Source: Candidatus Micrarchaeota archaeon
GTDB taxonomy: Archaea; B1Sed10-29; B47-G15
DNA: 64,000 nt
Assembly: GCA_003660975.1 (NCBI GenBank)
Contig: QMVG01000001.1
Coordinates: 1 to 64,000 of the forward strand
Direction of reading: 5' to 3'
This document shows positions 9,738 to 33,325 of this stretch, piece after piece (position 1 is the first letter of the stretch; every line of letters starts with the position of its first letter). Below the pieces are notes generated by a model. It was not told where the DNA came from, made no database searches, and worked only from the letters and a program-made list of their open reading frames with translations. A program made the position numbers and the translations under genes.

Positions 9738-11667
9738 AAATATCGACAAGAAAAAACTGGCCAAGATACTGAAAAGAGCAGTGAATGAGATAAAACCAGA
9801 GGACATACCTCTATTCGCTGATAGAAGAGATATATTCATACAGCCTGCTCCAAAGATTCACGTTATTGAAGAGGTAAAAGCACCTGAAGAAATTAAGATA
9901 AAGGCTGGAAAGGACATCTTCAAAGAACTTGAAAAAGAGGTAAAGGAAGGCAAAGGCGCTAGCATAATAAAACCAAAGGGCCCTATAGTGCTTGAATTCC
10001 CAAAAATAACAGAGGAATTGAAAACATTTAACGTGATAAACATAAACGAGCTGGGAAAAGGAGAGGTTCTAGGCTTACCTTTCAGCAGCCACACGCTACC
10101 AGAGGTTGAAAAAAGCAAGAAGATAAACAGCGAGTGGGAACCTCCAGAAATGGAAAAAATAGACATGAGATATGCTTTGATAGAACCGTATGCTTATGCT
10201 AGCATTCATTGGGATGGAAAAAATAACGAATTGGTGTACAGTGTAATAGAGCCACCGCTGACTGATAGGGAGAAGAAGATATTGGAACAGCTTAAGGAAA
10301 TGATTTCTGACCTTCTGGACATAAATCTTATGGAAGCTACGAACACCAAGGAACTACAGCAATATCTGAAAAAGAAGATAGACCAATTGATAAGGGACTA
10401 CGAGATAAAGGTTTCTGAGGTTGAATATTGGAAGATATTGTATTACATTTACAGAAACTTCTTGGGTCTTGGGAAGATAGAACCTTTGATGCATGACCCG
10501 AACATTGAGGATATCTCATGCGATGGTGTAAACATACCTATTTTTGTATTCCACAGAAAATTTGGCAGTCTAAAAACTAATATCAAGTTTGAAAGCGATG
10601 ACGAGTTAAATACATTTGTAACAAAGTTGGCGCAACGTTGCGGCAAGCACATAAGTGTTGCTGAACCCCTTTTAGACGCAGCCCTGCCTGACGGGTCGAG
10701 ATTAAGTGCCACATACAGTGCAGGTGGAGACATAGCAACAAAGGGAAGCACGTTCACCATCAGAAAATTTACGAAAGACCCGCTTACCATAATAGACCTA
10801 ATGAATTACGGAACCATACCTGCTACAATGGCTGCTTATCTGTGGTTGGCAATAGAATTTAGGAACTCCACTCTTGTGGCTGGTGGGACAGCAACAGGAA
10901 AAACGAGCACTCTCAACACGCTTTGCTTGTTCATACACCCTGAGGCCAAAATAGTAAGCATTGAAGACACAAGTGAATTGAGGCTACCCCACGAGCATTG
11001 GATAGCGAAAATTGCAAGACCTGGCTATGGGCAGGCAGGAGCCTCTGGAGAAAAGAGAGGAGAGATAAGCATGTTTGACTTGTTAAAGACAGCGCTGAGG
11101 GAGAGACCTGAAGTTATAGTGGTGGGCGAAGTAAGAGGAAAAGAAGCATATGTACTATTCCAAGGTATGGCTACAGGACATATGGGCTTATCAACGATTC
11201 ATGCTGAAAGCATGAACGCAGTTGTCAGCAGGTTGACAACACCTCCTATTAACTTATCACCAGGCCTGCTCCAGCACTTAAAGCTGGTGATAGTCCTGCA
11301 ACATGCACATATAAAGGGGATAGATGTAAGAAGGGTGAAGGAAGTTGTTGAGATAGTAGGCATAGATGCAAGAACTCAGAGACCTATAACAAACCAGATA
11401 TTTAGGTGGGTGCCTTCAGGGGATTATTATGAATTTGCTTCTGACAGGAGTTATATACTAAATAGAATCATAGACGAGAAAGGAGTAAGTGAGCGCAGTG
11501 TCTGGGCAGAGCTGAAAAGAAGGAGAGACATCCTAAATTGGATGAAAAAGAAAAACATAAGATATTATGAGGATGTGGGCAACATAGTTGCCACATATTA
11601 CAAAAATCCAGAGCTTATCTTGGAGAAGGTTTATGGGGAGGAAAATGAAAGCGCCAATATTCAGTAA
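9730..11667 (+). CDS. Type II/IV secretion (pilus assembly) ATPase, module 1
   Basis: DPNIEDISCDG, LPDGSR, TFTIRKF, Walker A GGTATGKTS, SIEDT, LRERPEVIVVGEVRG, TGH..STIHA. Confidence 0.93.
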   Translation: MSENIDKKKLAKILKRAVNEIKPEDIPLFADRRDIFIQPAPKIHVIEEVKAPEEIKIKAGKDIFKELEKEVKEGKGASIIKPKGPIVLEFPKITEELKTFNVININELGKGEVLGLPFSSHTLPEVEKSKKINSEWEPPEMEKIDMRYALIEPYAYASIHWDGKNNELVYSVIEPPLTDREKKILEQLKEMISDLLDINLMEATNTKELQQYLKKKIDQLIRDYEIKVSEVEYWKILYYIYRNFLGLGKIEPLMHDPNIEDISCDGVNIPIFVFHRKFGSLKTNIKFESDDELNTFVTKLAQRCGKHISVAEPLLDAALPDGSRLSATYSAGGDIATKGSTFTIRKFTKDPLTIIDLMNYGTIPATMAAYLWLAIEFRNSTLVAGGTATGKTSTLNTLCLFIHPEAKIVSIEDTSELRLPHEHWIAKIARPGYGQAGASGEKRGEISMFDLLKTALRERPEVIVVGEVRGKEAYVLFQGMATGHMGLSTIHAESMNAVVSRLTTPPINLSPGLLQHLKLVIVLQHAHIKGIDVRRVKEVVEIVGIDARTQRPITNQIFRWVPSGDYYEFASDRSYILNRIIDEKGVSERSVWAELKRRRDILNWMKKKNIRYYEDVGNIVATYYKNPELILEKVYGEENESANIQ

Positions 11668-12550
11668 GCCATATAGGATACTAGCATACAAGATATGCAA
11701 GAAATTGGGTATCTTTTCAATTCCCTTCCTCTCGAGGCAGATGAAAAAAATAAAACCGCTGCTTCTATCAGCAAAGTTGAGAATGACTGAGGAAGAATAT
11801 TTTGGGACTATAATATTTACGACTATGCTGCTATTCCCGTTTGAATCAATTATTTTTTATTTACTGTTGATAACTGTGCCTGCCTTCTCTTTTCTGTCTG
11901 CCTTATTTTTATCCCTGATATTTGCAAGCTTTATGTCGGTTGTCATCTTCGCAGTCTTTCTCATCTATCCAACATATAGAGTTGAACAAATAAAAAGGGA
12001 TATAGAAGCCAATGTTCCGTATGCAGCCATGCATATGGCAACCATTGCTGGCACAGGTGTTCCTACGTATAAAATATTTGAAATGATGGGAAAGTTCAAA
12101 GAATATGGTGAAGTAAGTGATGAATGCAAGAGGATAAGCAGAGACATAAACTTTTTTGGCTATGACATGTTAACAACAATGTCAAAAACAGCCACCAATA
12201 CACCTAGCCCGAGCTTTAAGGACCTGCTCTGGGGTCTGGTTGCAGTGATACGCTCAGGGGGAGATACTAGGCATTTCCTAATGGAAAAGGCCAGGCAGTA
12301 TTTGGAAAGGCAAAAGAACATTGAGAAAGAGTATTTAGATAGCTTAAGCGTGATGGCAGAGTTGTATATAACGCTTTTTGTGGCTGGCCCCATACTCTTC
12401 GTGATCATGGTGACAATTATGGGCAGTATGACAAATCTCGGTCTACCTGTTACTGTTATCCTTTCTGTGCTGATATATTTCATACTTCCGATAGCCTCAA
12501 TAGCATATATTATAATGTTGGAGGGCAGTAAGCCTGTTGGCTTTGAATGA
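11645..12550 (+). CDS. TadC/FlaJ-like pilus platform membrane protein (T2SSF family)
   Basis: Directly follows the ATPase; T2SSF-type pattern (EANVPYA...GVP...TPSPSFKDLLWG...SGGD) with TM helices. Start re-chosen at ATG 11645. Confidence 0.85.
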   Translation: MKAPIFSKPYRILAYKICKKLGIFSIPFLSRQMKKIKPLLLSAKLRMTEEEYFGTIIFTTMLLFPFESIIFYLLLITVPAFSFLSALFLSLIFASFMSVVIFAVFLIYPTYRVEQIKRDIEANVPYAAMHMATIAGTGVPTYKIFEMMGKFKEYGEVSDECKRISRDINFFGYDMLTTMSKTATNTPSPSFKDLLWGLVAVIRSGGDTRHFLMEKARQYLERQKNIEKEYLDSLSVMAELYITLFVAGPILFVIMVTIMGSMTNLGLPVTVILSVLIYFILPIASIAYIIMLEGSKPVGFE

Positions 12551-12559
12551 GGTGCGTGC

Positions 12560-13714
12560 ATGAAGATAAACATAGACAGAAAAAGCCTGCTGATAATGGT
12601 ATCAGGCTTGATACTGCTGTTAATTGATATTCTGTTCCTGTTGGAAAGCCCCTATTTCCAAAATCTTGTGATTATCTCCATTATGGTTATAAGCGCTCCG
12701 CTTTTGATAAGGCAGTATCTGGAATATAGGCGGATAAAACTTATAGAGAGATACCTCCCAGATTTCCTTAGGGATGTTGCAGAAGCCAGAAAATCAGGCA
12801 TGCCTCTTATAAGGGCAATACAAAACGCAAGTAAGGGAAATTATGGGCCATTGACTGAGGAAATGAAGAAAGTCAGCAACCAATTGTCATGGGGTGTCTC
12901 TCTTGAAGAGGCTCTGAGGAAGTTCATGGAAAGGGTAAACAGCAAATTTGTAAAACAGGCAGTGCTCATAATAATAGAAGCATATAAATCAGGGGGAGAA
13001 ATATCAAACATATTAGAAACAGTAAGCACGGACATAGAAACATTAAAGGAAATGGAAAGTGAGAGGAAGAGCAAACTTAAGATATACACCTATTCAATGT
13101 ATATGATATTCTTGCTTTTTCTAATGATAATAATAGTGCTTGCTGTTACATTTATTCCTGCCACGCCTGAGCTTGCAAGCGTTGCTAAGATAATGGGAGG
13201 ACAGACTCAGGAGGTTGCTGAAGCCGACTTCTTGACACTATTCTTCCATCTGGCCTTAATAGAGGCAGTGTTTGCTGGTTTGATAAGCGGGCAGATGGGT
13301 GAAGGCAGCATAATAGCAGGTATAAAACACAGCGTGATTCTTGTTGTAATTACTATGCTGGTTTTCTCCTTTTTCATTTCACAGGCGCCTTTTTCATCCA
13401 AAATTGCGGAAGAGATAATAAAGTCTCCTCCAGGGGTGGAAAGCACGCTTTCCATACAAAAGATATATGTTCTGGATAAGGATGTTAGCAGCATGGAGAT
13501 TATAGAGGAGTTAAGAAAAAAGGCGCCTAATCCAGAGGTATTCAGTGATATAACTCCCAATGATGTGTTCTTTAGGGCTGAAAACTGCAAACCATGCAGT
13601 AGGGGAGATATAGAAGTCAGAGCACATTCTATAAAAGTGAACAAAGCAAGTAGGATACATTACATAGTTAAGCAACGCAACAAAAAATATTATGTGAGTA
13701 TTGGGGGAGAGTAA
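12560..13714 (+). CDS. TadC-like platform protein with an extra C-terminal domain
   Basis: LPDFLRDVAEARKSGMPL, QLSWGVSLEEAL, SGGEISNIL, GLISGQMGEG..AGIKH, then a ~110-aa tail containing CKPC. Confidence 0.87.
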   Translation: MKINIDRKSLLIMVSGLILLLIDILFLLESPYFQNLVIISIMVISAPLLIRQYLEYRRIKLIERYLPDFLRDVAEARKSGMPLIRAIQNASKGNYGPLTEEMKKVSNQLSWGVSLEEALRKFMERVNSKFVKQAVLIIIEAYKSGGEISNILETVSTDIETLKEMESERKSKLKIYTYSMYMIFLLFLMIIIVLAVTFIPATPELASVAKIMGGQTQEVAEADFLTLFFHLALIEAVFAGLISGQMGEGSIIAGIKHSVILVVITMLVFSFFISQAPFSSKIAEEIIKSPPGVESTLSIQKIYVLDKDVSSMEIIEELRKKAPNPEVFSDITPNDVFFRAENCKPCSRGDIEVRAHSIKVNKASRIHYIVKQRNKKYYVSIGGE

Positions 13715-14232
13715 TGAGAGCGAACCTTAACTTTGACTTTATAGTTGCCCTGGCTCTCTTTGTAACTGCATATGCTACCTTAACCACCAGTATGCCTTCA
13801 TTTGCTATTGGGTACAGGGCTTTGGAAGACCCTCTCCTCGTCGACTCAGAATATTTGCTTCATACACTTATTGCAAACGCAGGCGAACCTGGAAACTGGA
13901 GCTCCACGACACAAGTGAATAGGATAGGATTAGCATACTTTAACAGGACAAGCTATCCCTATGTGCTTTCACTGGAAAAAATAAAAGCAGTAAATGGTAA
14001 AGACTGCGCATCCTTTCTAGATAAGACAGACACAAATATAAACTTCAAGTTCAGGGTGGATGTTAAGAAAGGAACAAAAAGCTCAAGTTATGAATGCAAT
14101 GCAGAGCTTCCGCTTGGAGCCAGGCTCATCCAGAGGCCTGTTAAGGTTGCTTACATTGAGGGGGTAGGCAAAGATGCAAAGGTAATATATAATGTGTCAA
14201 GATTTTATCTTTGGACCTGGCTGGCCAAATAG
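13714..14232 (+). CDS. Minor pilin-like protein
   Basis: MRA/NLNFDFIVALALF class III-like N-terminus and a GEPGNW motif. Confidence 0.7.
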   Translation: MRANLNFDFIVALALFVTAYATLTTSMPSFAIGYRALEDPLLVDSEYLLHTLIANAGEPGNWSSTTQVNRIGLAYFNRTSYPYVLSLEKIKAVNGKDCASFLDKTDTNINFKFRVDVKKGTKSSSYECNAELPLGARLIQRPVKVAYIEGVGKDAKVIYNVSRFYLWTWLAK

Positions 14233-14240
14233 GTGTTAGT

Positions 14241-14672
14241 ATGAAAGGATTTATGCATCTCACTGAGGCAATCATTGCAATCATGCTGTTGATGGTAGTA
14301 TTGAATGCTGTTCAGAGCAATATTGGGGAAAGATATGAGGACTTTAGCGGCACGTATAGGTTGAAATCCCTAGCAGATAGCCTTGTCTTTTCTGTCTGCA
14401 ATGACCAAAATGTAAGGCAGCACTTGGTGAACAATGACTTAACGTATATTTCAAGTTCAGAGCTTGATTGGGCACTGCCTAAAGATGTTTCTTACAAAAT
14501 AGTACTTTACTCGCAAGGAGGCAATGTAATTGGCTCTATAGGCTATCAGCCATCCGAGAAGGATGTGGTTGTCACGAGCAGCTGTTTGATATCAGGGTAT
14601 ATGGAGATAAACAATATGTCCAACTACTCATACGCTCCGCGAAAACTAGTGGCTATGTTGTGGAATAGGTGA
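14241..14672 (+). CDS. Minor pilin-like protein
   Basis: MKG/FMHLTEAIIAIMLL class III signal; start re-chosen after an AGGTG RBS. Confidence 0.72.
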   Translation: MKGFMHLTEAIIAIMLLMVVLNAVQSNIGERYEDFSGTYRLKSLADSLVFSVCNDQNVRQHLVNNDLTYISSSELDWALPKDVSYKIVLYSQGGNVIGSIGYQPSEKDVVVTSSCLISGYMEINNMSNYSYAPRKLVAMLWNR

Positions 14673-14676
14673 TTTC

Positions 14677-14955
14677 ATGAATAGGGGACAGTTTTTCATA
14701 TTGACTGTGGTGCTTGTCTCTGTGCTGATTGCTGCTGTCGCAGAAAATTACTTTTTTGAATTGGAAGCAAAAAGGAGCTTTAACAGGATAGAAAGCAATT
14801 ATGCCCTTATGGAAAATATCAAGACAGAGCTGGCAATCGTCACTATGATGGATCCTATGAATAGCACAAGAATAAAGAACTTCACATTATACATAGCAAA
14901 CGAAAGTAAAAAGGCAAATATTAAAGCAAATATAACAACGAGGTTATTGCCGTGA
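14677..14955 (+). CDS. Small pilin-like protein
   Basis: MNRG/QFFILTVVLVSVLIAAV; GGTGA RBS upstream. Confidence 0.72.
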   Translation: MNRGQFFILTVVLVSVLIAAVAENYFFELEAKRSFNRIESNYALMENIKTELAIVTMMDPMNSTRIKNFTLYIANESKKANIKANITTRLLP

Positions 14956-17264
14956 AAAAATTGTTATTAATCATTATGTTTGCATTGCTCATTAATCTTG
15001 CTTACTCAGCAGAGGCCAGATGGTCTGACACTATGAGGATAACAAATAACGCTGTGAGAGATAGCTTTACAGATATCTCATGCACAAGCCCATACTTCTG
15101 CATGGCTGTTTGGCAATGGGAGATATCAAGTAACAGATATGAAATAAATGCTTCATTTTGGGATGGCAATTCCTGGAGCACAGCAATGAATTTGACTTTA
15201 ATGAACTCACTTGAGAGGAATACGCGCCCAACTGTGTCATGTATTTCTCCTTCATTCTGCATGGCGGCTTGGGAGTACAATGACCTAGTAAATCCCACGC
15301 AGATAGCATATTCTACATGGAACGGATTGTCATGGTCAAGGGCCTCTGTGCTGACCTCTGCAAGCAGGGCGCAGAGTTGGCCTACATTAAAGTGCCTTGA
15401 CATTAGCGGAAACACGTGGTGCATGCTCGTCTGGGTAAATGATACGGGCATAGGCCTGAAACTCTCGTATTGGGACTATGACCAAAATGCTTACAATGGC
15501 TGGGACCCTGCAAAGGCACCCCAGGGTCTCCAGATAAATACTGGCTCTGCTGATGTAACAAGGCCTGATGTTGACTGCAATAGCAATAATTTCTGCGTGG
15601 CGTCGTACACTGAATTAACACTGCCAAGCACCATAAAAGCTGTGAAATGGGCTGGCTCATCTTGGGGGACTATTTCAGGCACTGTGTCTGGGTCTCTCTC
15701 AAATGACAATGACTTTTCATCAGTTGCTTGCGGAAATGAAATTGCTCCTGTTTTAACAGATTACTGTGAATTTGCGTGGGAAAATCTGGGCAGTCCGAAT
15801 TCAGTTTACCACAACAATTACAATGATTTCACGCCTTCTTTGGGAAGCCCAACAAGTATTACATCAAACAACAAAGGGGGAAAGCCAGATTTGAGCTGCA
15901 CCAAAAATGCAAATCACATGAACTGCACTTTTGTATGGAATAATTATACTGGCTCCCAATGGGAAATAGTTGGAACTGCGTATGAGGGGGGGTGGGTCTA
16001 TGACCCTGCAGTGAATATAAGTAATTCATCGTCCAGCAATGCCAATGCAAGTATATCTCAACCTGTTGATTGGTTTTCAATGACTGTCTTTCAAGAAAAT
16101 GACGGAGACGAGGAGATATACGCGGTCTACTCACAGAAAAATATACCTCCATACAATTTTCAAGCTAACGACAACGGAGCAGGGAATATTGACAATTACA
16201 CAGATGTTAAGATATCTGCTACATGGACTGACCCAAATCTTAATGAAATTGTAAACCTCTTTGTTGCCAATAACAGTAAGTTTATAGGCTGCAATAAAAG
16301 CAGCAGCAGCTGGTGCTTGTGTACAGATATGGGGCAAACAGATGGAGATGGAGAGTGCATTATAGACACTGCCAAGCAAAAGAACAAAGTGTGGTGGTAT
16401 GCAAGAGCCTGTGATGATGAGTGGAACTGCTCTGCTTATGACAATGACTCATACTATGTAACGCAAAAGAACAAGCCATATCTAACATACGTGGACGTGA
16501 AACCAGATAACCCGAACACCACAGTCAGTTTATCGTGTAATTTCAGGGCAAGCGACGCAGATAGCACTGATAAACTGCATGCTAACATAACGTGGTTTGT
16601 GAATGTGACTCCAGACAGTTTTATGCATGTGGATGACTATGATGTTATAAACACCCCGCTTCCAAATGGCGATCCTGGAAATGTGAGCCCCCTGAAGATT
16701 CCATATGACCATGTAAACCATACGAAGCATAGAGTATGGAAATGCCAAGTAACTGTAAGGGATGGCACCGGAACGCCTTATGACGCTAAAAACGGATCAG
16801 AGGAGATAGTAAACAGCTTGGCTGAGATATCCTCAATAAGCCTTAATCCAAAACCAGCGTATCCCTTTGATGATTTGGTCTGCAACACGACTGTGAGTGA
16901 TGCTGATGGGGACAACCTAAACGTACAGTACAGGTTTGACAAGGATGGGCTGTTGTTTAGGACTGGCACTGCCACTTGTTGGGGAAGCCCGCCGTACAAG
17001 TGCAATGCAACTGTTGGCAGTCCTGCTACATCTGCTGGGGAAACATGGAAGTGTACAATGAATGTCACTGATGATGAAACCAATCCTTCGCTGGCAGATG
17101 TAGATTATGACACCCTTCAAATAAATTATCCTCAAGGCAATTGCGATGTTTATATAAATTGCAGTGCTGATACCTGTAAGTTCGCAAGAGAGTTTAATAT
17201 TAGTTTAAGTCCTTTTGAAGGATATGCAAGAATCAAAAGCAAATATAAGGTGTGCTGGTCATGA
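14952..17264 (+). CDS. Secreted Cys-rich adhesin-like protein (putative 7-bladed beta-propeller plus Ig-like domains)
   Basis: Sec signal peptide. Repeated (I/V)SC...C(M/V)(A/F)(V/A)W units, then Ig-like repeats (SDADSTD, SDADGDNL, W.C..TV.D). Confidence 0.65.
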   Translation: MKKLLLIIMFALLINLAYSAEARWSDTMRITNNAVRDSFTDISCTSPYFCMAVWQWEISSNRYEINASFWDGNSWSTAMNLTLMNSLERNTRPTVSCISPSFCMAAWEYNDLVNPTQIAYSTWNGLSWSRASVLTSASRAQSWPTLKCLDISGNTWCMLVWVNDTGIGLKLSYWDYDQNAYNGWDPAKAPQGLQINTGSADVTRPDVDCNSNNFCVASYTELTLPSTIKAVKWAGSSWGTISGTVSGSLSNDNDFSSVACGNEIAPVLTDYCEFAWENLGSPNSVYHNNYNDFTPSLGSPTSITSNNKGGKPDLSCTKNANHMNCTFVWNNYTGSQWEIVGTAYEGGWVYDPAVNISNSSSSNANASISQPVDWFSMTVFQENDGDEEIYAVYSQKNIPPYNFQANDNGAGNIDNYTDVKISATWTDPNLNEIVNLFVANNSKFIGCNKSSSSWCLCTDMGQTDGDGECIIDTAKQKNKVWWYARACDDEWNCSAYDNDSYYVTQKNKPYLTYVDVKPDNPNTTVSLSCNFRASDADSTDKLHANITWFVNVTPDSFMHVDDYDVINTPLPNGDPGNVSPLKIPYDHVNHTKHRVWKCQVTVRDGTGTPYDAKNGSEEIVNSLAEISSISLNPKPAYPFDDLVCNTTVSDADGDNLNVQYRFDKDGLLFRTGTATCWGSPPYKCNATVGSPATSAGETWKCTMNVTDDETNPSLADVDYDTLQINYPQGNCDVYINCSADTCKFAREFNISLSPFEGYARIKSKYKVCWS

Positions 17265-17800
17265 TACGCTTTAAAAAAGAAGAGTTCAAAGTAGAGGTTG
17301 CGGATAAATTTTGGAAAAAGGTCATAGGCCTTATGTTCAGAAAAAAGCTGGACCACGCCCTGCTAATTCCATTAAATAAAGAGACAAGAAAAGGAGCTAG
17401 CATACACTCTATGTTTATGAGGTTCACATTTGATGCTATTTTTTTAAATAAGGACTTGGAAGTCGTTGATATGGCCACCATAAAACCGTGGACGCTAAAC
17501 TTCACCCCAAAGGCCGCGGCAAAGTACATAGTAGAGGTGCCTGAATACACCATAGTAAAGAACCTAATAAACCTCGGGGATGTCATAGAAATAGATGAAA
17601 TAGAAAAGGAGCCGGAGCCTGAACGCATTGAACACTACGAAAAAACATTTGCTCCAATAAAGAGAGACATAAAGGCGTTCAAGCAGAGTCCATCTATTCC
17701 TTACTTCCTGAAAAACTATTTTATCAAGAAAAAATTAACTGCAAGTAATAAAGAAAGGTTAGAAAAACCTAATAATAAGAAGCAGAAGCAAAAGAGATAA
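17261..17800 (+). CDS. DUF192 family protein
   Basis: VEVAD.FWKK..GLMFRK, SIHSMFMRF.FDAIFL, YIVEVP. Confidence 0.85.
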   Translation: MIRFKKEEFKVEVADKFWKKVIGLMFRKKLDHALLIPLNKETRKGASIHSMFMRFTFDAIFLNKDLEVVDMATIKPWTLNFTPKAAAKYIVEVPEYTIVKNLINLGDVIEIDEIEKEPEPERIEHYEKTFAPIKRDIKAFKQSPSIPYFLKNYFIKKKLTASNKERLEKPNNKKQKQKR

Positions 17801-19422
17801 TGCGCTTAAGCTTGGACAGGGAAAAGTGTACTGATTGCGGAGCATGTTTGGAAAGCTGTCCCATGCAACCAAGAGACGTAAGCATATCCCAGTTTCTAAA
17901 CTGCCCTTGTGAAGCAAAACCTTGCCTGTCTGTTTGTCCTGAAAAAGCAATTGAAGAGAGAAATGGCGCTGTTGTAATAAACAGAAAGAAATGCAATGAC
18001 TGTGGCAAGTGTATAGAGGTATGTCCGAATCATGCAATAGGCAGGGATAAGGATGGGCATGTAGTCAAATGTGATATGGGCTTTTCATTTGGTTATCCAA
18101 AATGCGTGCAGACCTGCCCGTATAATGCTATAAAATACGAACTCACGGAGGAAGAAAAGGAGAAGATAAGTGAATGGATAGGTTGGGAAAAGAGTGATGA
18201 GGCAGAATATAAGGCAGACGTGAGGCGCATAGGTTTTGAGGAAGCAAGAATCATACACAACACAATAAAGATATTCAGAAGGGAGTTCAACGATTACGAC
18301 GAAAATATCATAAGGAAAATAATCAATGCCTACTGCGACAAGAAAAACATAGAAATTGAGAAAAAACTTTTTGAGAAGATTGTAAAGCAGGTTGAATCCG
18401 AAATCAGGGGTTATGGAGTGCTTGACCTATTTTTGAATGACGATGACTTAGAGGAAATTGCTGTTATTGGGAGCAACAAACCAATATATGTTTACCATAA
18501 GGACAAAGGCTGGCTTAAAAGCAATGTGACGGTAACTAATGAACAGAAGATAATAGACCTAGCCAATAAAATGAGCAGAGACCTGGGAAGAAGAATCACT
18601 ATGCAAAAACCAAGAATAAATGCCAACATAAAACTTGGCAGAATCCATGCAGGCATGAGGCCTGTTGCCTTCTCAGGCGCTTGCCTGACAATAAGGAAAT
18701 TTAGGAGGAAGTTATTCAGCCCCGAGGAATTGGTGCAAAACCAAAGCATAAGCAAGGAAGCATTGCACTTTTTAGCAATGGCTATGAAATCAGATGTAAG
18801 CATAATGGTCGTTGGGAACACAGGCAGCGGAAAAACAACGCTAATGAACGCACTTTTTGATTTTATTCCGTTAAATGAACGCATTATCATTGTTGAGGAG
18901 ACGCCTGAAATAAATGTGAAGCACCCGCACCAGATTAGATTAACAGTTTCAGAGGATTTGGACATAAGCATGCATGAGCTAATTGAGGACACATTGAGGA
19001 TGAGGCCTGATAGGGTCATAGTTGGAGAAATAAGAAGCCCTGAAGAGGTAAAGGCATTCATAAACACGATGTTGGCAGGCCAGGGCAAGGCCTCTTATGC
19101 CACATTTCACGCCCAAAACGCAGAGGAGGCACTGATCAGAATGCAGAGCATGGGGATAAACCCAATGGACCTCAATGCTCTGGACCTGATAGTAAGCCAA
19201 AGAAGATGGTCTGAAATAGGAAGAACAGGAGAGGTTAGAAGGGTTGTTGAGATCGCCTCTGTAGAGAAAAATTACAGGGGAAGTCCAAGGATAAAACATT
19301 TGTTCAAATATGATATGAGAAAGAAAAAGCTGGAAATGAAAACGCTTGAGGGGCCTGCTGTTGAAAAGATATGTTTGAGCTATGGGATTAAGGCAAAAGA
19401 TTTAATGAGGACCAAAGTATGA
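17800..19422 (+). CDS. CpaF/TadA-like secretion ATPase with N-terminal 4Fe-4S polyferredoxin domain, module 2
   Basis: CTDCGACLESCP, CLSVCP, CNDCGKCIEVCP and CVQTCP, followed by LTIRKF, GNTGSGKTT, LRMRPDRVIVGEIR and ATFHA. Confidence 0.9.
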   Translation: MRLSLDREKCTDCGACLESCPMQPRDVSISQFLNCPCEAKPCLSVCPEKAIEERNGAVVINRKKCNDCGKCIEVCPNHAIGRDKDGHVVKCDMGFSFGYPKCVQTCPYNAIKYELTEEEKEKISEWIGWEKSDEAEYKADVRRIGFEEARIIHNTIKIFRREFNDYDENIIRKIINAYCDKKNIEIEKKLFEKIVKQVESEIRGYGVLDLFLNDDDLEEIAVIGSNKPIYVYHKDKGWLKSNVTVTNEQKIIDLANKMSRDLGRRITMQKPRINANIKLGRIHAGMRPVAFSGACLTIRKFRRKLFSPEELVQNQSISKEALHFLAMAMKSDVSIMVVGNTGSGKTTLMNALFDFIPLNERIIIVEETPEINVKHPHQIRLTVSEDLDISMHELIEDTLRMRPDRVIVGEIRSPEEVKAFINTMLAGQGKASYATFHAQNAEEALIRMQSMGINPMDLNALDLIVSQRRWSEIGRTGEVRRVVEIASVEKNYRGSPRIKHLFKYDMRKKKLEMKTLEGPAVEKICLSYGIKAKDLMRTKV

Positions 19423-20240
19423 GGGACATTATGGACGAAGCAGTGGAATCTGCTTATGCTAACTTATCAGTTATTGCCAAGTATTTTTATGACAAAAAAT
19501 TTGAAAAAGCGCTAAAAGAGGCCCAAATGCCTTACAGCGCTTTGGAATATACCTCATTTGCGATTGCCTTAGGCATTGTCTCTGCAATTTTCTCAACACT
19601 CCTAATTGCAGTCACTGAGCTGTGGTTTGCTTTTCTTCCGCTTGCTTTCGCGTTTGCCTATACATTGGCAATGCTTTATCCAAAGCAAAAAGCAGTGCAT
19701 ATAAGAAAAGCAGTTGAAAAGGAAATTCCTGATTTTCTCAGAGATGTGGCCCTTGAGCTAAACGCAGGCAGCTCATTTGAAAAAGCTCTGCTGACTTATT
19801 CCAAGAAAGGAACAGTGTTCTCACAATTAGTCAGAAAAGCTGTGCTCTCAATAAAGCACGGTGGGAGCGTCCAGGAGGCACTGGGCTCTCTGGCATTGAT
19901 GACTTCATCAAAGAGGTTGATGAGAACAGTTAATGCCTTAATATCTGTATACGAAAAAACATCCAAGAAACAGGGAGACATACTGCAAAAGCTAGCGAGA
20001 GATTTTTCCAGAGAGGATTATGCTAGACTGAAAGAATATCACTCAAAGGTAGCTGTCTATTCCTTGATTTTCATAACTTTCTCATCTGTGCTTCCTGCCA
20101 TGTACCAAGGCTTTGTGGCAATTGCTTCAAGGTTCTTGAGCATTGGCATAAGCCCTGAGCAAGCCCTATTAATACCTGCTCTTTTATTCCCGCTCTTAAA
20201 CATCCTCATAATAGCCATAGTGAGGGAGAAAGCCCCATGA
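19419..20240 (+). CDS. TadB/TadC-like platform protein
   Basis: EIPDFLRDVALELNAGSSFEKAL, TM helices, overlaps the ATPase stop. Confidence 0.82.
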   Translation: MRDIMDEAVESAYANLSVIAKYFYDKKFEKALKEAQMPYSALEYTSFAIALGIVSAIFSTLLIAVTELWFAFLPLAFAFAYTLAMLYPKQKAVHIRKAVEKEIPDFLRDVALELNAGSSFEKALLTYSKKGTVFSQLVRKAVLSIKHGGSVQEALGSLALMTSSKRLMRTVNALISVYEKTSKKQGDILQKLARDFSREDYARLKEYHSKVAVYSLIFITFSSVLPAMYQGFVAIASRFLSIGISPEQALLIPALLFPLLNILIIAIVREKAP

Positions 20241-20935
20241 GAATATTAAAAACGTACTTTGAAAAGAAAAAAGAAAGAGAAATGGAAGAAGAGATACCAG
20301 AAATCCTCTACCACGTTGCCAACATGCTATCATACACTAGTATTGAGGAGGTAATTAACTGGATTGCTTCAAGAGAAGGAGAGATAGGAAGGCGCTTTTT
20401 GCTTGTCAACAGAAAAATAAAGAATGGTGAAAGTGCTGAAAGGGCATTGCTTGAACTAAGAGAGAGTGTCAGAAGTGATTTCATAAAAAGAGCAGTGGAT
20501 ATGCTAATCTCTGAGTGCAGGACAGGAGCTAAGAACAGTAATATGCTAAGAGAAGTTGCGGAAGACATGCAAGACATGTTGCAGGCCAGAAGGGAAAAGA
20601 CAGCATCAGCAACTGTTGAGAAATACACTTTGTTAATTGCTGGAACTGTAATAGTGCCTCTTCTCTTGGGTCTCATGATAAGCATAAGCCACAACCTTAG
20701 CTCTGCTGAGCTGGGCGACTTTGCACTTTCCTCTGTAGACAGTGCCATAATAGAAAACAGCATACTTGGAAGTCAGATATATATCGTTGAGTATGCTTTC
20801 ATAGCAGCCCTGTTCATAGCTATTCAAGAGGGTAAAAGTGAGAACATGTTGAGATACTTAATTATAATACTTCCCAGCTCTGTTTTGATATTCAACCTGG
20901 CCCAACGCTTCAATGTCTTGCAGGTCCTATCGTAA
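20237..20935 (+). CDS. TadC-like platform protein
   Basis: EEIPEILYHVA...NGESAERAL...RTGA...LREVAED; three C-terminal TM helices. Confidence 0.8.
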   Translation: MRILKTYFEKKKEREMEEEIPEILYHVANMLSYTSIEEVINWIASREGEIGRRFLLVNRKIKNGESAERALLELRESVRSDFIKRAVDMLISECRTGAKNSNMLREVAEDMQDMLQARREKTASATVEKYTLLIAGTVIVPLLLGLMISISHNLSSAELGDFALSSVDSAIIENSILGSQIYIVEYAFIAALFIAIQEGKSENMLRYLIIILPSSVLIFNLAQRFNVLQVLS

Positions 20936-20975
20936 CACCAGAACTGTTTTAAAGATTACGTGCTTTTTATAGTGT

Positions 20976-21851
20976 ATGGGGAGAAAAATTGAGGCCTACA
21001 AGCTGGAGCCAAAGCTGTTCTTTACGATGCTTCTTTGCATTCTAATCATATTCTTCACGTTTATCGTGCTGACATATAAAGAAGAGGCAGTGAGCAGGAA
21101 GGTCAGCAAAAACGAGAGTTTCAGCATAAATGTATCACTAAACAAAACAGAGGAAAACATAAGCACAGCTGAAATACCAAGTGAAAACAAAAGTGAGGAA
21201 AAAACATTATACGTGAAAGCAGAATTTTTGGAAAGTAGAACAGGCAGGGAAAACTTTTCTGTGGCATATGATGGTAGTGTACTTGAGGTAAGAAGCAACC
21301 CTCTTGGCATGGGAGACTGGGCTGTTGTTTTCACAGTAAATGATGAGATAAAAAACTTCTCATTTGAGTACTTAGAGAATGCAAGCATACAGCTCTTTGA
21401 CCCTTTTATTAGGATACATTTTTACAGCTATAACCCCGAGCTGAGTGCTAATGACCTGTCATCTTTACCTTCCCCTGATTATTTCTACCTGGCAGAGGCG
21501 AGGGTTGACCCGAGCGCTTCATACCCTGTTGGCCAAAGAGAGATGTGGGGACCTGAAATCTGCTACAGTAAATACAAATACTGTGACAGCGAACAAAAAG
21601 GTAGGAAGGGGCAGATAGTGCTAAGCTCTGAGTATTTGAAAAGCCTGGCCAAAGAGTTTAAGAAGAAAGATATAGAGCCAAAGATGAAGGCTCCTGTAAC
21701 AGTTGTCATACACGGGAATAACCTTGTGAGAAAAAGCAGCCATGTCTGGCGAATAAGAGAGATAAAGGTCAATGGCATAAAGCTTAAATTCTCTTTGCTA
21801 GTTGATAAGTACAGAAACAGGACAGTATATATGAAAAACGTGGAGGGATAG
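20976..21851 (+). CDS. Hypothetical membrane-anchored extracellular protein
   Basis: 291-aa ORF with a single N-terminal TM helix and a sequon-rich linker. Confidence 0.65.
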   Translation: MGRKIEAYKLEPKLFFTMLLCILIIFFTFIVLTYKEEAVSRKVSKNESFSINVSLNKTEENISTAEIPSENKSEEKTLYVKAEFLESRTGRENFSVAYDGSVLEVRSNPLGMGDWAVVFTVNDEIKNFSFEYLENASIQLFDPFIRIHFYSYNPELSANDLSSLPSPDYFYLAEARVDPSASYPVGQREMWGPEICYSKYKYCDSEQKGRKGQIVLSSEYLKSLAKEFKKKDIEPKMKAPVTVVIHGNNLVRKSSHVWRIREIKVNGIKLKFSLLVDKYRNRTVYMKNVEG

Positions 21852-21852
21852 A

Positions 21853-22590
21853 ATGAAGCATGTTGAGGTCGTGCTAACACGAGATGTTGACCTAAAAAAT
21901 AGTGTGCTTATAGAGGGCTTTCCTGGTGTTGGCTTAGTAGGAACCATTGCGGTTAGCTACATAGTGGAAAAAACAGGAATGAAAGCAATAGGTTATATAG
22001 ATTCGGAGAGTTTTCCCCCCATAATAACAATACATAAGGGCAGGCCTTACTTTCCTATGCGAATCTATAAGCACCCAAGCAAGGACTTCTGTGTGCTTCT
22101 GGCAGAGTTTGTTACACCCTCTGATGTGATTCATGAACTGGCTAAGAAGATATTGAGCTTTGCAAAGGAAAAAGGAATAAGGCAGATAATATCCCTTGCT
22201 GGCATGAGCATGCCTGAAAACGAGAGGGAATCAGAGATATTTGGCATAGCTTCAAATGAAGAGATGCAGCTTTTCTTAGCTTCAAAAAATGTAAAAGCAA
22301 TTGAAGAGGGCGTAACAACAGGTGTTAGTGGCATGCTCATCGCAGAGTGTGCTAGGGAAAATTTTCCTGCTATTACTCTGCTCGCACAGTCAGAGTACAA
22401 GGTGCCGAACCCAAGGGCTTCGGCGGAATTGATAAAGAAACTGGATGAACTCATAGGCCTTGAGGTTGACACAAGTGAATTGCTCAGAGAGGCCAAAGAG
22501 ATAGAGAAAAAGATGAAAGGGCTGATGAGCAAGAGCGTGAAAGAAAAGAAGATGTACAAGGAGGTTGAGGATTCCCTCATGTATGAGTAA
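21853..22590 (+). CDS. Proteasome assembly chaperone PAC2 family protein
   Basis: LIEGFPGVGLVGTIA, GVSGMLI, PNPRASAELI, VDTSELLREA.EIE, C-terminal MY. Confidence 0.9.
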   Translation: MKHVEVVLTRDVDLKNSVLIEGFPGVGLVGTIAVSYIVEKTGMKAIGYIDSESFPPIITIHKGRPYFPMRIYKHPSKDFCVLLAEFVTPSDVIHELAKKILSFAKEKGIRQIISLAGMSMPENERESEIFGIASNEEMQLFLASKNVKAIEEGVTTGVSGMLIAECARENFPAITLLAQSEYKVPNPRASAELIKKLDELIGLEVDTSELLREAKEIEKKMKGLMSKSVKEKKMYKEVEDSLMYE

Positions 22591-22599
22591 GGTGGTGCG

Positions 22600-23151
22600 A
22601 TGAAGGAGCTTGAAGACATAAGGGAATTTTACAAGATTATGAGCCCAAGGCTCACTGTCTTGGTAACTACGATGGACGCGAGAGGCGTGGCAGATGTGGC
22701 TGCTTTCTCGTTTGTAACTCCTATCTCTTTTGACCCACCAATGCTGCTGTTGGCAGTTGGACCAAACAAGCACTCATATTGGAGCATAACTACGAAAAAA
22801 GAGTTTGTTGTAAACGTGCCTAGCGAGGAATTGGCTGAGAAAATCATGATAGCAGGAGAGCCGTTCGACCCAAAGGCAAGCAAGATAGAAAGAGCAGGTT
22901 TTGAGACGATTCCAAGCAAGGTGGTTGGGCCTCCCAGCATAAAAGACTGCGTGGCAAACATAGAGTGCTACGTTGAAGACGCCAGAAAATATGGGGACCA
23001 TGTTATAATAGTCGGCAAGGTAGTTGCTGTGAGGGTCAGGGATGACGCTGTTGACGAGGAATATAGGTTAAGGACAGATAAAATAAGACCACCGCTCCAC
23101 ATAAGTGATAATGTATTTGCTTTCCCGTACGTTGAAAAGAAAATAGAGTAA
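22600..23151 (+). CDS. Flavin reductase-like (FMN-binding split barrel) protein
   Basis: PRLTVLVTT, ISFDPP, EFVVNVP, IECYV...GDHVIIVGKV. Confidence 0.88.
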   Translation: MKELEDIREFYKIMSPRLTVLVTTMDARGVADVAAFSFVTPISFDPPMLLLAVGPNKHSYWSITTKKEFVVNVPSEELAEKIMIAGEPFDPKASKIERAGFETIPSKVVGPPSIKDCVANIECYVEDARKYGDHVIIVGKVVAVRVRDDAVDEEYRLRTDKIRPPLHISDNVFAFPYVEKKIE

Positions 23152-24117
23152 TTACTGCTTGACAATAACATCCTTGCCACAGTGGGGACATTTGTATATT
23201 ATCATGTCTCCTTCTCTTCTTACAGAGCTGGCACAGTGGGAGCAAAAGCCCTTGCCACAGTAGGGGCAGTATATAACTGTGACGTTTTTTCTTCCGCAAT
23301 TGGGGCAAGTCATGCCTTTTTCCTTTGGAATCTCCTCCGTCTCATTTACGCCTGCTATGTTTGACAGCTCACTCTCAAGCTCGGACAGCGTTCCAAGCTC
23401 TGCACTATTGTCTAATGAGAGGTCTTCTAATGTGAGGCTTTCTATTGAGGATAGGTCAATAGCCTGAGCTTCAGCTGTTTTCTCTGCTGTTGGAACTGTC
23501 TTCTCTCCAGAGCCTTTCTTATATGTCATATCAATCTTAACCTGCTCTATCAATTTCTCTCTATGTTTTCCCCTTCTCGCCCTTCTCTCAGCAGCTCTCT
23601 TTTTGTAGCTTTCAACTGCTTCGTTCAGCTTGTCAAAGAGCTGTGCATGTGTCTCTTGCCCTGTGTTCATGATTTTTGCCAAGCCGAGCTTAAGCTCTGG
23701 CGTCTTTAATTTCAGGCTTGGCCCAATGTGTTTCTCTTCAGCTGCTTTTTTCTCTGTGAATTGCTTTGATGTTTCTTTTTTCTTGAACGCCCCAACATCA
23801 AACCTCAGGACAGGAAGCGCTACTTTAATCGTGTCTCCCATAGATGACTTCAGGTAAATAAACACCGCTATAACCAAGACAAGCATGGGATAAGTTATGA
23901 AAAAGAGGTAATAGCTGATGAAATAAGAAGCAAGAAAAGACAATGCAAATATTAAGAACCCTGTCATTAAGGAGTAAAACCACTTGTCCTTGTTGTTGAG
24001 GCTTCTTATGTCTGGATAGGCATACCTCAATGTAAGATAACCAAAACTGATGCTTCCAAGGCTACCCACCATTACTGCAATAAGCCATAGCTCCAGAGGG
24101 GTTATAACAAACACCAT
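23152..24117 (-). CDS. Membrane protein with C-terminal zinc-ribbon domain
   Basis: Three N-terminal TM helices, a basic then acidic linker, and CPNC/CPYC/CSHC/CPHC. Confidence 0.7.
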   Translation of the reverse strand: MVFVITPLELWLIAVMVGSLGSISFGYLTLRYAYPDIRSLNNKDKWFYSLMTGFLIFALSFLASYFISYYLFFITYPMLVLVIAVFIYLKSSMGDTIKVALPVLRFDVGAFKKKETSKQFTEKKAAEEKHIGPSLKLKTPELKLGLAKIMNTGQETHAQLFDKLNEAVESYKKRAAERRARRGKHREKLIEQVKIDMTYKKGSGEKTVPTAEKTAEAQAIDLSSIESLTLEDLSLDNSAELGTLSELESELSNIAGVNETEEIPKEKGMTCPNCGRKNVTVIYCPYCGKGFCSHCASSVRREGDMIIYKCPHCGKDVIVKQ

Positions 24118-24685: not shown

Positions 24686-27600
24686 TTGGTGGAAAGAGCA
24701 TATGCCTTTTTGATGGCTTTGGTACTGATCTCCTCAGTTTTCACTCCTTATGCATATGCCATTAGGGAGAGAAATAACAACGATTATGTGGTGCATGACA
24801 TAAGCGTTAAAGAAAAAAGCTTAAGCCACTTTATCGGAAGTTCAGATGACAACTGCTGGTTGAAGGTCAGGACATCTGCAATTGACCATGACGAGTTCTC
24901 AAAGCTGATGGAGGCCGTTGATGAGGACATAGACAGCTTCGGAAACATTGTCTTGGGAAGGATACAGAGAGAAAGGGAGAGAGCAGGCATAGCAGACGAC
25001 CCAGAGGTGGAAAAAGCCAGAAACCAGATATTTATGATAAACGGCGTGCCTGTGAGGCTTTACGACATAGCTTCAAGGAGCGCTAAGAATCCAGACGATG
25101 TCTGCCACTTAAGCTCTGTGCTGGTTGACGGTGCCATATCTCTTGGCATGGGAATAAACCAGAACCTGAGGTTTTGCGCTGACAACCCCTCTCCTGCCTG
25201 TGAGGAGGGCTATGCTTCTTCTGTGAGCAGGAAAGACCTGGTCGCAGTTGAGAGAATAATAAGCGAACTGAAAAAAGCAGAGGATGACAAGGAAGTCAAT
25301 TGGGACGCTGTTTCATCTGAATTTGAGAAATTGCACATTGATTTTGAGACAGATGGAAAAAGCGACGGGGAGCTTCTTGATGAAGCTACTGCCAACCTCG
25401 CGAGCATCATAAAAGAAAAAAAGGTAAAGTACAGCCCTGCCAACATAATTGAAAGCAACAGGACCTTCATAACGCTGGCTCCTTCAGACATCATTTACCT
25501 CTTTCCCAAGGAAATAATGAACATGGCCAATGTAATAAGCGGCTTGAGAAAGGACCTCAACAAGTGGAACCTGATGGGCCTCGGGGTTGGGCTGAGCAGC
25601 ATAGGCATTGGTTGGATGAACTCCATAGCAACCAGGTCAGTCACCAGGCTTGGCAGGGGCATAGCAGAGGACAGCGACGAGTTTGCCAGCTTGACCAGGC
25701 AGGGAGGGAGAGTAAGAGGCTTGTTTACCCGAGGAAGCCCGAGTCAAAGGATGATAAGAAGATGGAGCCGCGGTGGAGGCACTATTACAGAAGAGCTAGT
25801 CCCTTCTGCAGGACAGGGAATTAGAGACAGACTTGGAGGCTGGTGGTGGAAAAAGGTTAGAGCGAAAAACCTGAGAAATGTGGGCATAGCTGAGGATGAA
25901 ATTAATGGCATAGCAGATGCGTTGAGAAAGGGAAATATAGATGAGGCTGTGAAAAAGCTGGATGATATTACACGGGATTTGGATAATATTCCCACAAAAG
26001 AAAAAGTAGATGACATTGCAGATGGGCTGAGAAGGATATCAAAGCAAAAGCAAATAACTGGGGAAGCACTCAACGATCAGGTGAGTAAACTGGATGAGCT
26101 TGCTGAAAAGTTTCCTGATGAGGTTCCCGATGAAGCAGAAGTGAAAAAAACTTTAGGAGACGTAAAGAAGATGCTGGAAGGCGGGAGCGTAGATAAAGAA
26201 GTGATAGAAAAGGCTGTGAAAAAGTTGGATGACCTTGCTGAGAATCTTCCCAGCAATACCAAGCTGAAAGCTTTCAAGGAAGAATTAGAAAAGATTAACT
26301 ATTACAGGGACATAAACAGGAGAAGAGCCATAGCTGATGCTCTGGAGAGAAAGCTGACCGAAATCACGCCAAAGGACCCATCCAATACAAAGGAATGGTC
26401 CAAGGCATTTCAGAGCCATTATAAAGACAAAATTTACATAGGGCAGCAAAAGATAGAAGATGTTTTAAATGGATGGAAAAGAGAGGGGAGAATAATGGAC
26501 AGTGACATTAGTGAATTTCTGGAGACCATTGAGAGTGGAAAGTATGACGAGGCCATAAAGGCATTACCGTCTGACATACAAAGTGAGGACATAATAGCAG
26601 ATATAAGAAATGTAGCGGCAAAAGCAAAGAAGACAACTGGAGGGAAGATTGATGATATGGATAAATTTTTAAAGGCGAAGGTCGGCGGTGAATATGTTGG
26701 AGAGCTTGGAGATGTGATGACAGACATCGTGAAGGCAAATGCAGGTGGCTTTGGGGCGCTTATTGACCTGGCCAGGGCTGCAGGCAAATCTAAGGCCCTA
26801 TATTACCTCGCAAGTGCTGCAATCAGAGTAGGGCAGAGGGCGAGATATGTTTTGGACATTGGAAGGACTGCTATGTTTGCTGGCTTTATAGCAAGCACTG
26901 CCTTCAAGGGGGACGTGCAGGGCTTTTTCTCAATGCACACCTTCAATCTTGAGCTGAGCCCGAAGGAAGTGCTCAAGCAAAGCGGAAAGGACGGCTATGT
27001 TGACGTGCTTGCTGTAAGCAGAAAGGCAAGCATTGACATGGTGGAGCCAGACATGGTGACAGCCGTGCTGGCCTACTTTGGCATTGATGTGGGCAAGATG
27101 CTTAACGCTCCGCCGAGCGAGGAGAAAATAATAGCGGAAAAGCTGAAGAGCATAAGCAAGATGCTCTTCTTCATGGACCAGGAGGGAAGCGTGGTTGAGG
27201 GAAGGATCAACAGCATAGGGAGGATTGACGAGCTGGGGTCAAGGAGGTTCATGCTCCTGGCGAGAAACCCGGCGCAAAGCCACTTCCTGCTGGCAGAGCA
27301 CCCTCACTCGTATAAGGTCTCGTCATCTGGAAAGTACAGCTCGCTTCTGCTGAACATAAACAATGTTGACTTAAGCGTCATAGGTCCTGACGTGGTGGAC
27401 TACGCGCAGCCAGACAGGATCACCACCTTCCTCGCAAATTGGATGCCATCTCCTTGGAAGCTGGTGCTGATGGGGGCGGCATGGGGCATCTTTGATGTGG
27501 CAGCAGTTGCCACAAGCAAGTTGGGCATACTCGGCGTTTCAATTCCCGTGATGTACTATGCAACCAGGCTCTTCGGAGAAAGAGGCACCTCACTCGTCTC

Positions 27601-31661: not shown

Positions 31662-31662
31662 G

Positions 31663-32250: not shown

Positions 32251-32296
32251 AATTAGGTAAAAGCATGGCAGGTATAAAAAACATAAAGAGGAGATT

Positions 32297-32437: not shown

Positions 32438-32449
32438 AGCTATCCCTCA

Positions 32450-32890: not shown

Positions 32891-32898
32891 CAAAACAA

Positions 32899-32934: not shown

Positions 32935-32937
32935 AGT

Positions 32938-33321: not shown

Positions 33322-33325
33322 AAAA

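Follow-up and report, generated by a model that had tools for sequence, protein, structure and literature searches.

Few prokaryotic motors have been studied as well as the ATPases of type IV filaments, and a redox cofactor domain is found in none of the solved structures and, as far as their main text goes, in neither of the two archaeal type IV pilus (T4P) surveys that we checked. Here we describe a protein in which such a domain is joined to an ATPase of this kind. Its gene lies at positions 17800-19422 of a stretch of 64 000 nucleotides from a ‘Candidatus Micrarchaeota’ archaeon (contig QMVG01000001.1, positions 1 to 64 000; this whole stretch is referred to below as the window), and the encoded protein of 540 aa combines an N-terminal, cysteine-rich iron–sulfur (Fe-S) domain of the polyferredoxin type with an intact ATPase of the secretion superfamily. 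The gene stands in an operon with a DUF192 gene and two genes for platform proteins of the TadB/TadC type.

Among archaeal filament systems, the class known as ‘system 1’ consists of one ATPase and two platform genes and has been found in methanogens, Thermococcales and Nanobdellati (DPANN), according to the main text of a published comparison (PMC13705601). The Epd pilus of Methanococcus maripaludis, as presented there, belongs to this class (PMC13705601); the module in the window likewise has one ATPase and two platform genes. The words ferredoxin, 4Fe-4S and Fer4 do not occur in that main text (supplementary tables aside), whose only mention of Fe-S concerns AapX (arCOG07320), a protein of unknown function of the Aap pilus of Sulfolobales (PMC13705601). 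An earlier statement of ours, made in a preliminary description of the window, that characterised archaeal T4P ATPases carry no Fe-S domain is accordingly correct for the structures and the main texts of the surveys checked, but should be read beside the fact that an Fe-S protein is already on record in an archaeal pilus system; AapX is encoded by a separate gene, belongs to a different subsystem and does not form part of the ATPase. None of the terms ferredoxin, Fe-S, 4Fe-4S, DUF192 or COG1430 appears in the main text of a further publication, its supplementary tables aside (PMC4858521), and the relevant passages of the report of a micrarchaeon with two T4P systems make no mention of ferredoxin or Fe-S (PMC5498576). 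Literature searches, with subscription journals outside their coverage, returned no description of a ferredoxin-fused type IV filament ATPase, and the fusion is thus undescribed in the searchable literature.

Fusion of an Fe-S domain to a filament ATPase

The fusion protein is encoded by a single uninterrupted open reading frame (ORF) on the + strand (17800..19422), in agreement with the preliminary description; the span which that description had given, 17261..20935, is less apt, 17261 being an alternative ATG inside the ORF of the DUF192 gene. In two sequencing runs that are possible sources of the assembly, the whole 2301-base stretch was recovered in a single contig, at depths of 59 and 53 and without a single difference. 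Another study supplied a contig (X4 record 26, 17986-18225) that bridges cysteine groups III and IV of the Fe-S domain, the linker and the junction with the ATPase, and keeps the codon GGC at 18079-18081, which is considered below. Phylum labels used here are taken from the title of one member record, and the window's own phylum is distinct from the phylum labelled ‘Candidatus Micrarchaeota’. At all 20 of the 20 loci fetched from the own phylum the fusion is a single intact ORF of 520-584 aa. The genome from which the window comes (1.33 Mb, 89.7% complete) gave nine matches to T2SSE, eight of them above the cut-off, and ferredoxin motifs and a Walker A motif occur together in only one, the fusion protein.

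The ATPase core, comprising an N-terminal and a C-terminal domain, is encoded at 18184..19422 (+), as delimited by the Pfam family T2SSE, by invariant alignment columns and by structure comparison. The T2SSE match covers residues 269-475 (E-value 3.2e-40; 138.4 bits versus a cut-off of 24.9). The Walker A motif GNTGSGKTT (residues 339-347; 18814-18840, +) is invariant in an 82-row alignment of homologs, as are E366/E367, the region D404-E410 and H437, which we take to be the Asp box, the Walker B region and the His box, respectively. The full-length AlphaFold2 model has a mean predicted local distance difference test score (pLDDT) of 93.3 and a predicted template modelling score (pTM) of 0.83. 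When this model was compared with solved structures by Foldseek, E-values of 1.8e-32 and 7e-32 were obtained with afGspE (2oap) and FlaI (4ihq/4ii7), respectively, and the best target-normalised template modelling (TM) scores, 0.74-0.76, were those of the Tad ATPase CpaF (8rkd/8rjf; for 8rjf, 0.76 with a root mean square deviation (rmsd) of 3.9 Å over 423 columns).

These relatives share the core of the window protein, not its N terminus. The bacterial Tad ATPase CpaF/TadA (8rkd, 8rjf, 9e24) has the same core fold but lacks an Fe-S domain and aligns only past residue ~110; generic bacterial CpaF-type genes, found in contigs with patterns from Walker A and the LRMRPDR box, are 29-37% identical to the window ATPase over residues ~170-510 and match it beyond residue 114 only. 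The two-domain fold is also common to afGspE (2oap) and FlaI/ArlI (4ihq, 4ii7), and the NCBIfam FlaI model covers residues 106-515, yet neither protein has a cysteine-rich N-terminal domain; FlaI, moreover, belongs to the archaellum, of which there are no genes at the fusion locus. No solved relative could be aligned to the first ~105 residues in structure or profile searches. Nor does any NCBIfam family reach its cut-off (180 versus 373 for the TadA family TIGR03819; 174 versus 550 for FlaI, NF058587), and by these scores the window ATPase is not an equivalog of either. One ATPase followed by two separate T2SSF genes fits the ‘system 1’ (Epd/Tad-like) class, and we regard it as almost certain that the protein serves as assembly ATPase in a type IV filament module of the Epd/Tad-like ‘system 1’ kind, with the gene order DUF192-ATPase-TadB-TadC, from a small-genome DPANN-type archaeon. 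Epd-type pilins and an EpdA peptidase were not identified in the fusion module, and nothing ties to it either the pilin-like ORFs upstream or the two A24 prepilin peptidase genes found elsewhere in the genome. Annotation pipelines already detect both halves of the protein: the automatic JGI name of homologs is ‘CpaF family ATPase/Fe-S-cluster-containing hydrogenase component 2’. Many homologs carry PF27713 among their precomputed Pfam domains, a family that may already cover part of this group of ATPases.

The four translationally coupled genes of the operon span 17252-20935 on the + strand. The first (17252..17800, GTG start at 17252) encodes a DUF192 (COG1430-type) protein of 182 aa, matching Pfam PF02643 (E-value 3.6e-14) and reaching 106.7 bits with NCBIfam PRK03760, below the cut-off of 146; it has 0 cysteines and 0 transmembrane segments. 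Its stop codon overlaps the start of the fusion gene by 1 base (TAATG). The fusion gene is followed, with a 4-base overlap at its stop codon, by the first platform gene (19419..20240, +; TadB-like T2SSF, 273 aa; PF00482, E-value 3.3e-8), which in turn overlaps by 4 bases the second (20237..20935, +; TadC-like T2SSF, 232 aa; PF00482, E-value 2e-9). A DUF192 gene and two TadC-type genes as neighbours are what the preliminary description had reported. In the own phylum, the ortholog has the DUF192 gene upstream of it at 17 of 20 loci and is followed by both platform genes at 18 of 20. The same gene order was found in the ‘Candidatus Micrarchaeota’-labelled phylum, where DUF192 is present at 17 of 20 loci, including five of the seven with an ortholog that lacks the ferredoxin-type domain (‘Fer4-less’ below), and the layout of the DUF192-ATPase-TadB/C operon is identical with and without the Fe-S domain. 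We had considered DUF192 as a specific partner of the Fe-S domain; this was ruled out, since the gene also stands beside Fer4-less orthologs, and DUF192 is thus a partner of the filament module instead. In the ‘Candidatus Micrarchaeota’-labelled phylum the two platform proteins are mostly encoded by a single fused gene for ~570-590 aa (e.g. L148:6319-8085 and L161:5878-7617, among loci L147-L166), unlike in the window's own phylum, where their genes are separate. A gene of the PAC2 family (proteasome assembly chaperone family; 21853-22590, +) follows the TadB/C genes at 19 of 20 own-phylum loci and is present at 16 of 20 loci of the ‘Candidatus Micrarchaeota’-labelled phylum, so that the PAC2-TadB/C synteny is kept across phyla.

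Cysteine groups and predicted clusters

The Fe-S domain (residues 1-114; 17800..18141, +) contains 15 cysteines in four groups, delimited by Fer4 families above cut-off and by column conservation. Ten Fer4-type Pfam families exceed their cut-offs between residues 5 and 112, among them Fer4 itself (E-value 1.4e-14) and Fer4_11 (35.7 bits versus 26.2; residues 37-112), while the NCBIfam DmsB model stays below its own (38.3 versus 214). Group I is C10-x2-C13-x2-C16-x3-C20-P21 (17827..17862, +), its cysteines being present in 101, 103, 103 and 108 of the 120 best homologs; group II is C35-x-C37-x4-C42-x3-C46-P47 (17902..17940, +); group III is C65-x2-C68-x2-C71-x3-C75-P76 (17992..18027, +), with cysteine in 113, 113, 113 and 108 of the 120; and group IV consists of C91, Gly94 and C102-x3-C106-P107 (18070..18120, +), Gly94 (GGC, 18079-18081) standing in place of the second cysteine. 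The preliminary description had counted two intact and two irregular groups with one cysteine missing. The count is right, and the missing cysteine is the one replaced by Gly94; group II, by contrast, is not defective, as it has all four cysteines at a spacing common to the nearest relatives (P0002-P0016) and is a variant typical of that clade. The Gly94 column holds cysteine in 112 of the 120 homologs, glycine in one (the window protein itself), glutamine in one and a gap in six, so that a site with three cysteines is rare: a residue occupies this column in 114 sequences, and two of them lack the cysteine.

The remaining ligand columns hold cysteine in 101-114 of the 120 homologs. When the cysteine patterns were parsed, 91 of the 120 had all four groups in order, five had 15-17 cysteines at odd spacing, two (the window protein and P0006) had a single substitution, eight lacked a whole ligand set, seven were N-terminally short gene calls and seven had no domain. 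The alignment used above (A1) consists of 82 Fer4-bearing rows picked from the 120, a selection that favours conservation; 12 of its cysteine columns do not vary. A linker helix (residues 117-126, assigned by DSSP on the model) and the junction motif ‘IGW’ (126-128; together 18148..18183, +) connect the domain to the ATPase; in A1, G128 is invariant and W129 is conserved in at least 90% of rows, and the motif is the point at which Fer4-less orthologs start. Cys179, in a ‘YC’ motif within the helical portion of the N-domain of the ATPase (about 18334-18336), is cysteine in 103 of 120 homologs and was considered as an additional cluster ligand, but most Fer4-less orthologs retain it as well, and it was ruled out.

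A phmmer search of the PDB with the Fe-S domain placed the polyferredoxin MvhB first (E-value 8.7e-24), then FwdF, NrfC/PsrB (2.6e-9) and HycB, with FdnH at 1.3e-6; overall, the nearest sequences are the polyferredoxins MvhB, FwdF and VhuB and the four-cluster subunits PsrB/NrfC, HycB, WOR5-beta and FdnH. Searching representative proteins with residues 1-135 gave 48 proteins at E ≤ 1e-10 and 0 at 1e-30; by that search the domain is nothing out of the ordinary for a polyferredoxin module, and a separate origin could not be named for it. The four cysteine groups follow the same order as in MvhB/VhuB, FwdF and HycB/CooF/PsrB/DmsB/FdnH. These polyferredoxins and four-cluster subunits sit in oxidoreductase complexes beside a catalytic partner, whereas the window domain sits on a motor ATPase whose operon contains no oxidoreductase gene, and has 15 cysteines, not 16. 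The DmsB/FdhB-like layout noted in the preliminary description is therefore a resemblance in the number and order of groups and not a sign that the protein is such a subunit, as no gene for a molybdopterin, tungsten or hydrogenase catalytic partner was detected by Pfam in 9730-23151 or elsewhere in the window. Comparison of the isolated N-domain model with solved structures by Foldseek gave four-cluster subunits as all of the top 11 matches (E-values 1.7e-6 to 1e-4), at TM scores of only 0.34-0.40; its inner half (residues 32-83) superposes on clostridial 2x[4Fe-4S] ferredoxins at 1.8-2.0 Å over 49-51 residues.

In DmsB and FdnH the ligands are arranged in a nested scheme in which the fourth cysteine of one group completes the site begun by another. 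The family consensus of 16 cysteines is sufficient for four clusters, and from its cysteine pattern the family form is predicted to bind four [4Fe-4S] clusters in the same way (I1-3+IV4, II1-3+III4, III1-3+II4 and IV1-3+I4). For the window protein itself three four-cysteine sites and one three-cysteine site are predicted. The latter, IV1-3+I4, would hold a [3Fe-4S] cluster, as three-cysteine sites do in DmsB and NarH, or else a cluster in which one iron is left open or has a ligand other than cysteine.

Distribution and loss of the domain

All 31 species genomes of the own phylum were searched with a profile. The match aligned from profile position 1-5, and the fusion is present, in 24; two genomes gave partial matches (contig end or uncertain), three have a Fer4-less ortholog and two, which are incomplete, gave paralog-level matches only. 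Together with the 91 of 120 best homologs that have all four groups, this bears out the expectation that the fusion recurs and its cysteines are conserved in homologs. In the ‘Candidatus Iainarchaeum’ phylum (151 genomes sampled), orthologs were found in 129 at an E-value cut-off of 1e-125; their matches start at position 1-6 in 20 cases, at 15-19 in 17 and at 81 or later in 92, and 37 of the 129 carry the Fe-S domain. Sampling of 251 genomes of the ‘Candidatus Micrarchaeota’ phylum gave 117 orthologs at the same cut-off, nine starting at position 1-3 and 108 at position 58 or later, and 251 genomes of the ‘Candidatus Woesearchaeota’ phylum gave 0 at 1e-115. As judged from these profile alignments, the Fe-S domain is missing from the majority of orthologs in two of the sister phyla, ‘Candidatus Iainarchaeum’ and ‘Candidatus Micrarchaeota’, both of the DPANN group. 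The homolog sample over-represents fused forms, because the search query was full-length.

The genes fetched form a graded series, with 16-17, 12-13, 8-9 or no cysteines, and the Fer4-less forms begin at an M-LGW junction. The ligands II1-3 and III4 have been lost together in P0036, P0042, P0058, P0091, P0096 and L146, and I1-3 and IV4 together in P0076, P0079 and L172-L177, while L178 lacks both sets and has eight cysteines left. Since the ligands lost together are those of single clusters, these losses give independent support both for the nested scheme and for real cluster binding.

A FastTree phylogeny was computed without the Fe-S domain, from an alignment of the ATPase core with 169 rows and 460 columns; seven gene calls with short N termini do not enter the counts. 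Four-cluster forms lie deep in all three phylum-level clades, and presence or absence of the Fe-S domain changes at least 11 times on this tree, six of the changes being forced by well-supported branches. A single clade of Fer4-less forms (20 rows of a 70-row subsample) was rejected, with a log-likelihood difference of 531 and a P-value of 6e-104 in the approximately unbiased test, in which trait groups were set by cysteine count and which was run after the first tree had been seen. Such counts do not distinguish gains from losses; because the architecture and the junction are shared, one old gain followed by many losses is the simplest reading. What is new here is the absence of the domain from most sister-phylum orthologs, the loss of ligands cluster by cluster, the rejection of a single Fer4-less clade and the unchanged operon.

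Possible function of the Fe-S domain

Because the domain is conserved where present yet repeatedly trimmed or lost while the operon stays unchanged, we consider it an accessory module, which probably serves the motor as an optional sensor (an input) or scaffold without belonging to its core. For the same reason of dispensability it does not amount to a new motor principle. Our working model, to which we assign a probability of about 0.45, is that redox state, O2 or Fe-S status provides an input that conditions the activity of the ATPase hexamer or its docking. The Fe-S domain would then be an old, dispensable input module that conditions the motor from outside its core mechanism. It is placed at the N terminus, the usual place of regulatory and adaptor domains in this ATPase superfamily, where the c-di-GMP-binding MshEN domain and the N1D domain of GspE, which binds GspL, are found. 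Intact, reduced clusters might keep the N-terminal module folded and permit hexamer activity or docking to the TadB/C platform, and filament assembly might be turned down when clusters are oxidised or lost or when Fe-S is in short supply. The organism makes and uses Fe-S proteins, its own genome encoding, among others, free ferredoxins, an Rpo3 with Fer4 and ABCE1. Redox gating of the pilus motor, as put forward in the preliminary description, is in our opinion plausible, and both a redox response and the direction of any such regulation would follow from this model. For ultra-small, contact-dependent DPANN archaea, such a module would link the redox, oxygen or Fe-S status of the cell to filament assembly. 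The forms with four, three, two and zero clusters and the rare variant with a three-cysteine site, all on the same operon backbone, make up a natural series for comparison.

Several observations weigh against this model. A four-cluster array is a hallmark of electron transfer and seems over-built for sensing, known Fe-S sensors usually having a single cluster, and the dispensability of the domain is equally compatible with a purely structural add-on. The isolated N-domain model is of moderate quality (pLDDT 75.9), and superposition of the whole domain by VIA-align is poor (Z ≤ 5.8; rmsd 9-11 Å over 100-107 residues). No correlate in lifestyle emerged from the ‘Candidatus Iainarchaeum’ phylum, in which none of 151 genomes gave a match to cytochrome bd (PF01654) and 126 of the 151 gave one to 2-oxoacid:ferredoxin oxidoreductase (POR_N, PF01855), a near-universal presence that is uninformative on lifestyle. 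Tallied by domain state, POR_N occurs in 36 of 37 genomes with the Fe-S domain versus about 77 of 92 without it, a split from which no conclusion is drawn because the gap is narrow and the genomes are related by descent.

The alternative that fares best, although we think it rather unlikely, is that the clusters are rigid cross-links of an interaction or lever domain with no part in redox signalling, in which case at most the assembly of the motor would depend on Fe-S supply. The Fe-S domain of ABCE1 is a structural-type module on an ABC ATPase. Like the window protein, ABCE1/RLI bears an N-terminal, ferredoxin-like Fe-S domain on a P-loop ATPase, but it is of the ABC type, has two clusters and acts in ribosome recycling, so the likeness is offered as an analogy only. 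ABCE1 Fe-S domains match residues 30-85 of the window protein (6tmf_d, Z 5.1, rmsd 2.0 Å over 54 residues; 3bk7). That the organism encodes ABCE1 and the Fer4-bearing Rpo3 is in keeping with a structural role, the clusters of Rpo3 being reported as determinants of RNA polymerase assembly (PMC5300874), and the stepwise and complete loss of clusters from an unchanged operon fits a non-catalytic add-on. On the other hand, four clusters in 110 residues exceed what a scaffold needs, and the Fer4-less orthologs begin at LGW with no replacement domain, which leaves no sign of a partner that the module would touch.

We think it improbable that the domain is an electron conduit, by which a hexamer with up to 24 clusters would draw on the ferredoxin pool and supply electrons to the platform, to the pilins or to the filament itself, for instance to drive reductive processing or to exchange electrons with a host cell. 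The nearest relatives of the domain are indeed electron-transfer modules, from MvhB to VhuB, and 16-cysteine four-cluster arrays are typical electron wires; free ferredoxins are encoded in the genome, and the oxidoreductase tallied above is widespread in the sister phylum. But no redox acceptor is visible in the operon, as DUF192 and TadB have no cysteine and TadC has one, and neither the sequences nor Pfam reveal a haem or Fe-S motif in the rest of the module. In chains of the FdnH/PsrB type the clusters follow the order FS1-FS4-FS2-FS3, in which the II1-3+III4 cluster is internal, yet one lineage has lost just this cluster; the only two clusters retained by L178 would not be neighbours; and most orthologs in two phyla keep the operon without the domain. 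The lack of an acceptor, the loss of an internal cluster in one lineage and the many domain-less orthologs place the conduit below both the sensory and the structural readings, and the link between electron transfer and a contact filament raised in the preliminary description is disfavoured on the same grounds, namely the missing acceptor, the single-cluster losses and the occurrence of the same operon without the domain. A bolder version, in which the ATPase ring serves as a redox port and six polyferredoxin heads pass electrons from the ferredoxin pool into the filament machine, is a shade more improbable still; if true, it would couple ATP-driven filament assembly or host contact to electron flow and open, on the cytoplasmic side, a route by which DPANN archaea exchange electrons with other cells.

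It is very improbable that the cysteine-rich domain binds zinc, or nothing, and that its ferredoxin motifs are relics: bacterial GspE/PilB ATPases do have a tetracysteine zinc site, but the CxxCxxCxxxCP motifs of the window protein, proline included, exceed the cut-offs of the ten Fer4-type families, 12 cysteine columns are invariant in the picked Fer4-bearing rows, and the ligands vanish in sets of four that match clusters, not singly as in drifting relics. That assembly or gene calling had joined a ferredoxin gene to an ATPase gene by artefact is refuted, as far as contigs can show, by the difference-free single contigs of two runs, the contig from another study that crosses the junction and the intact ORFs of all own-phylum loci fetched. 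The model of an Fe-S module that conditions the motor is the favoured, if tentative, reading, with the structural module as its nearest competitor.

Other genes of the window

Immediately upstream of the fusion operon (9730-17264, +) is another set of type IV filament genes. It includes a FlaI-like ATPase of 645 aa (T2SSE and PilB3_C), two T2SSF genes (11588-12550 and 12560-13714, +), three small ORFs, at least one of which is pilin-like (14211-14672, +, where MKGF precedes a hydrophobic stretch), and a gene for a Cys/Trp-rich secreted protein of 770 aa with no Pfam match. A third T2SSE ATPase, of 759 aa, is encoded at 35331-37610 (-; E-value 3.5e-17), and none of the seven ORFs that come after it has a Pfam match (30236-37610, -), so that three secretion ATPases are encoded within 64 kb.

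The window also encodes three giant predicted surface proteins: one of at least 2306 aa with CARDB repeats (from 2-6922, +), one of 1654 aa with no Pfam match (24686-29650, +) and one of 2402 aa with CarboxypepD_reg and bMG3 domains (39008-46216, +). A short exosortase/archaeosortase-like ORF is located at 37602-38174. Finally, a membrane protein of 321 aa with no Pfam match (23152-24117, -) ends in CPNC...CPYC...CSHC...CPHC, four CxxC pairs that look like a double zinc ribbon.

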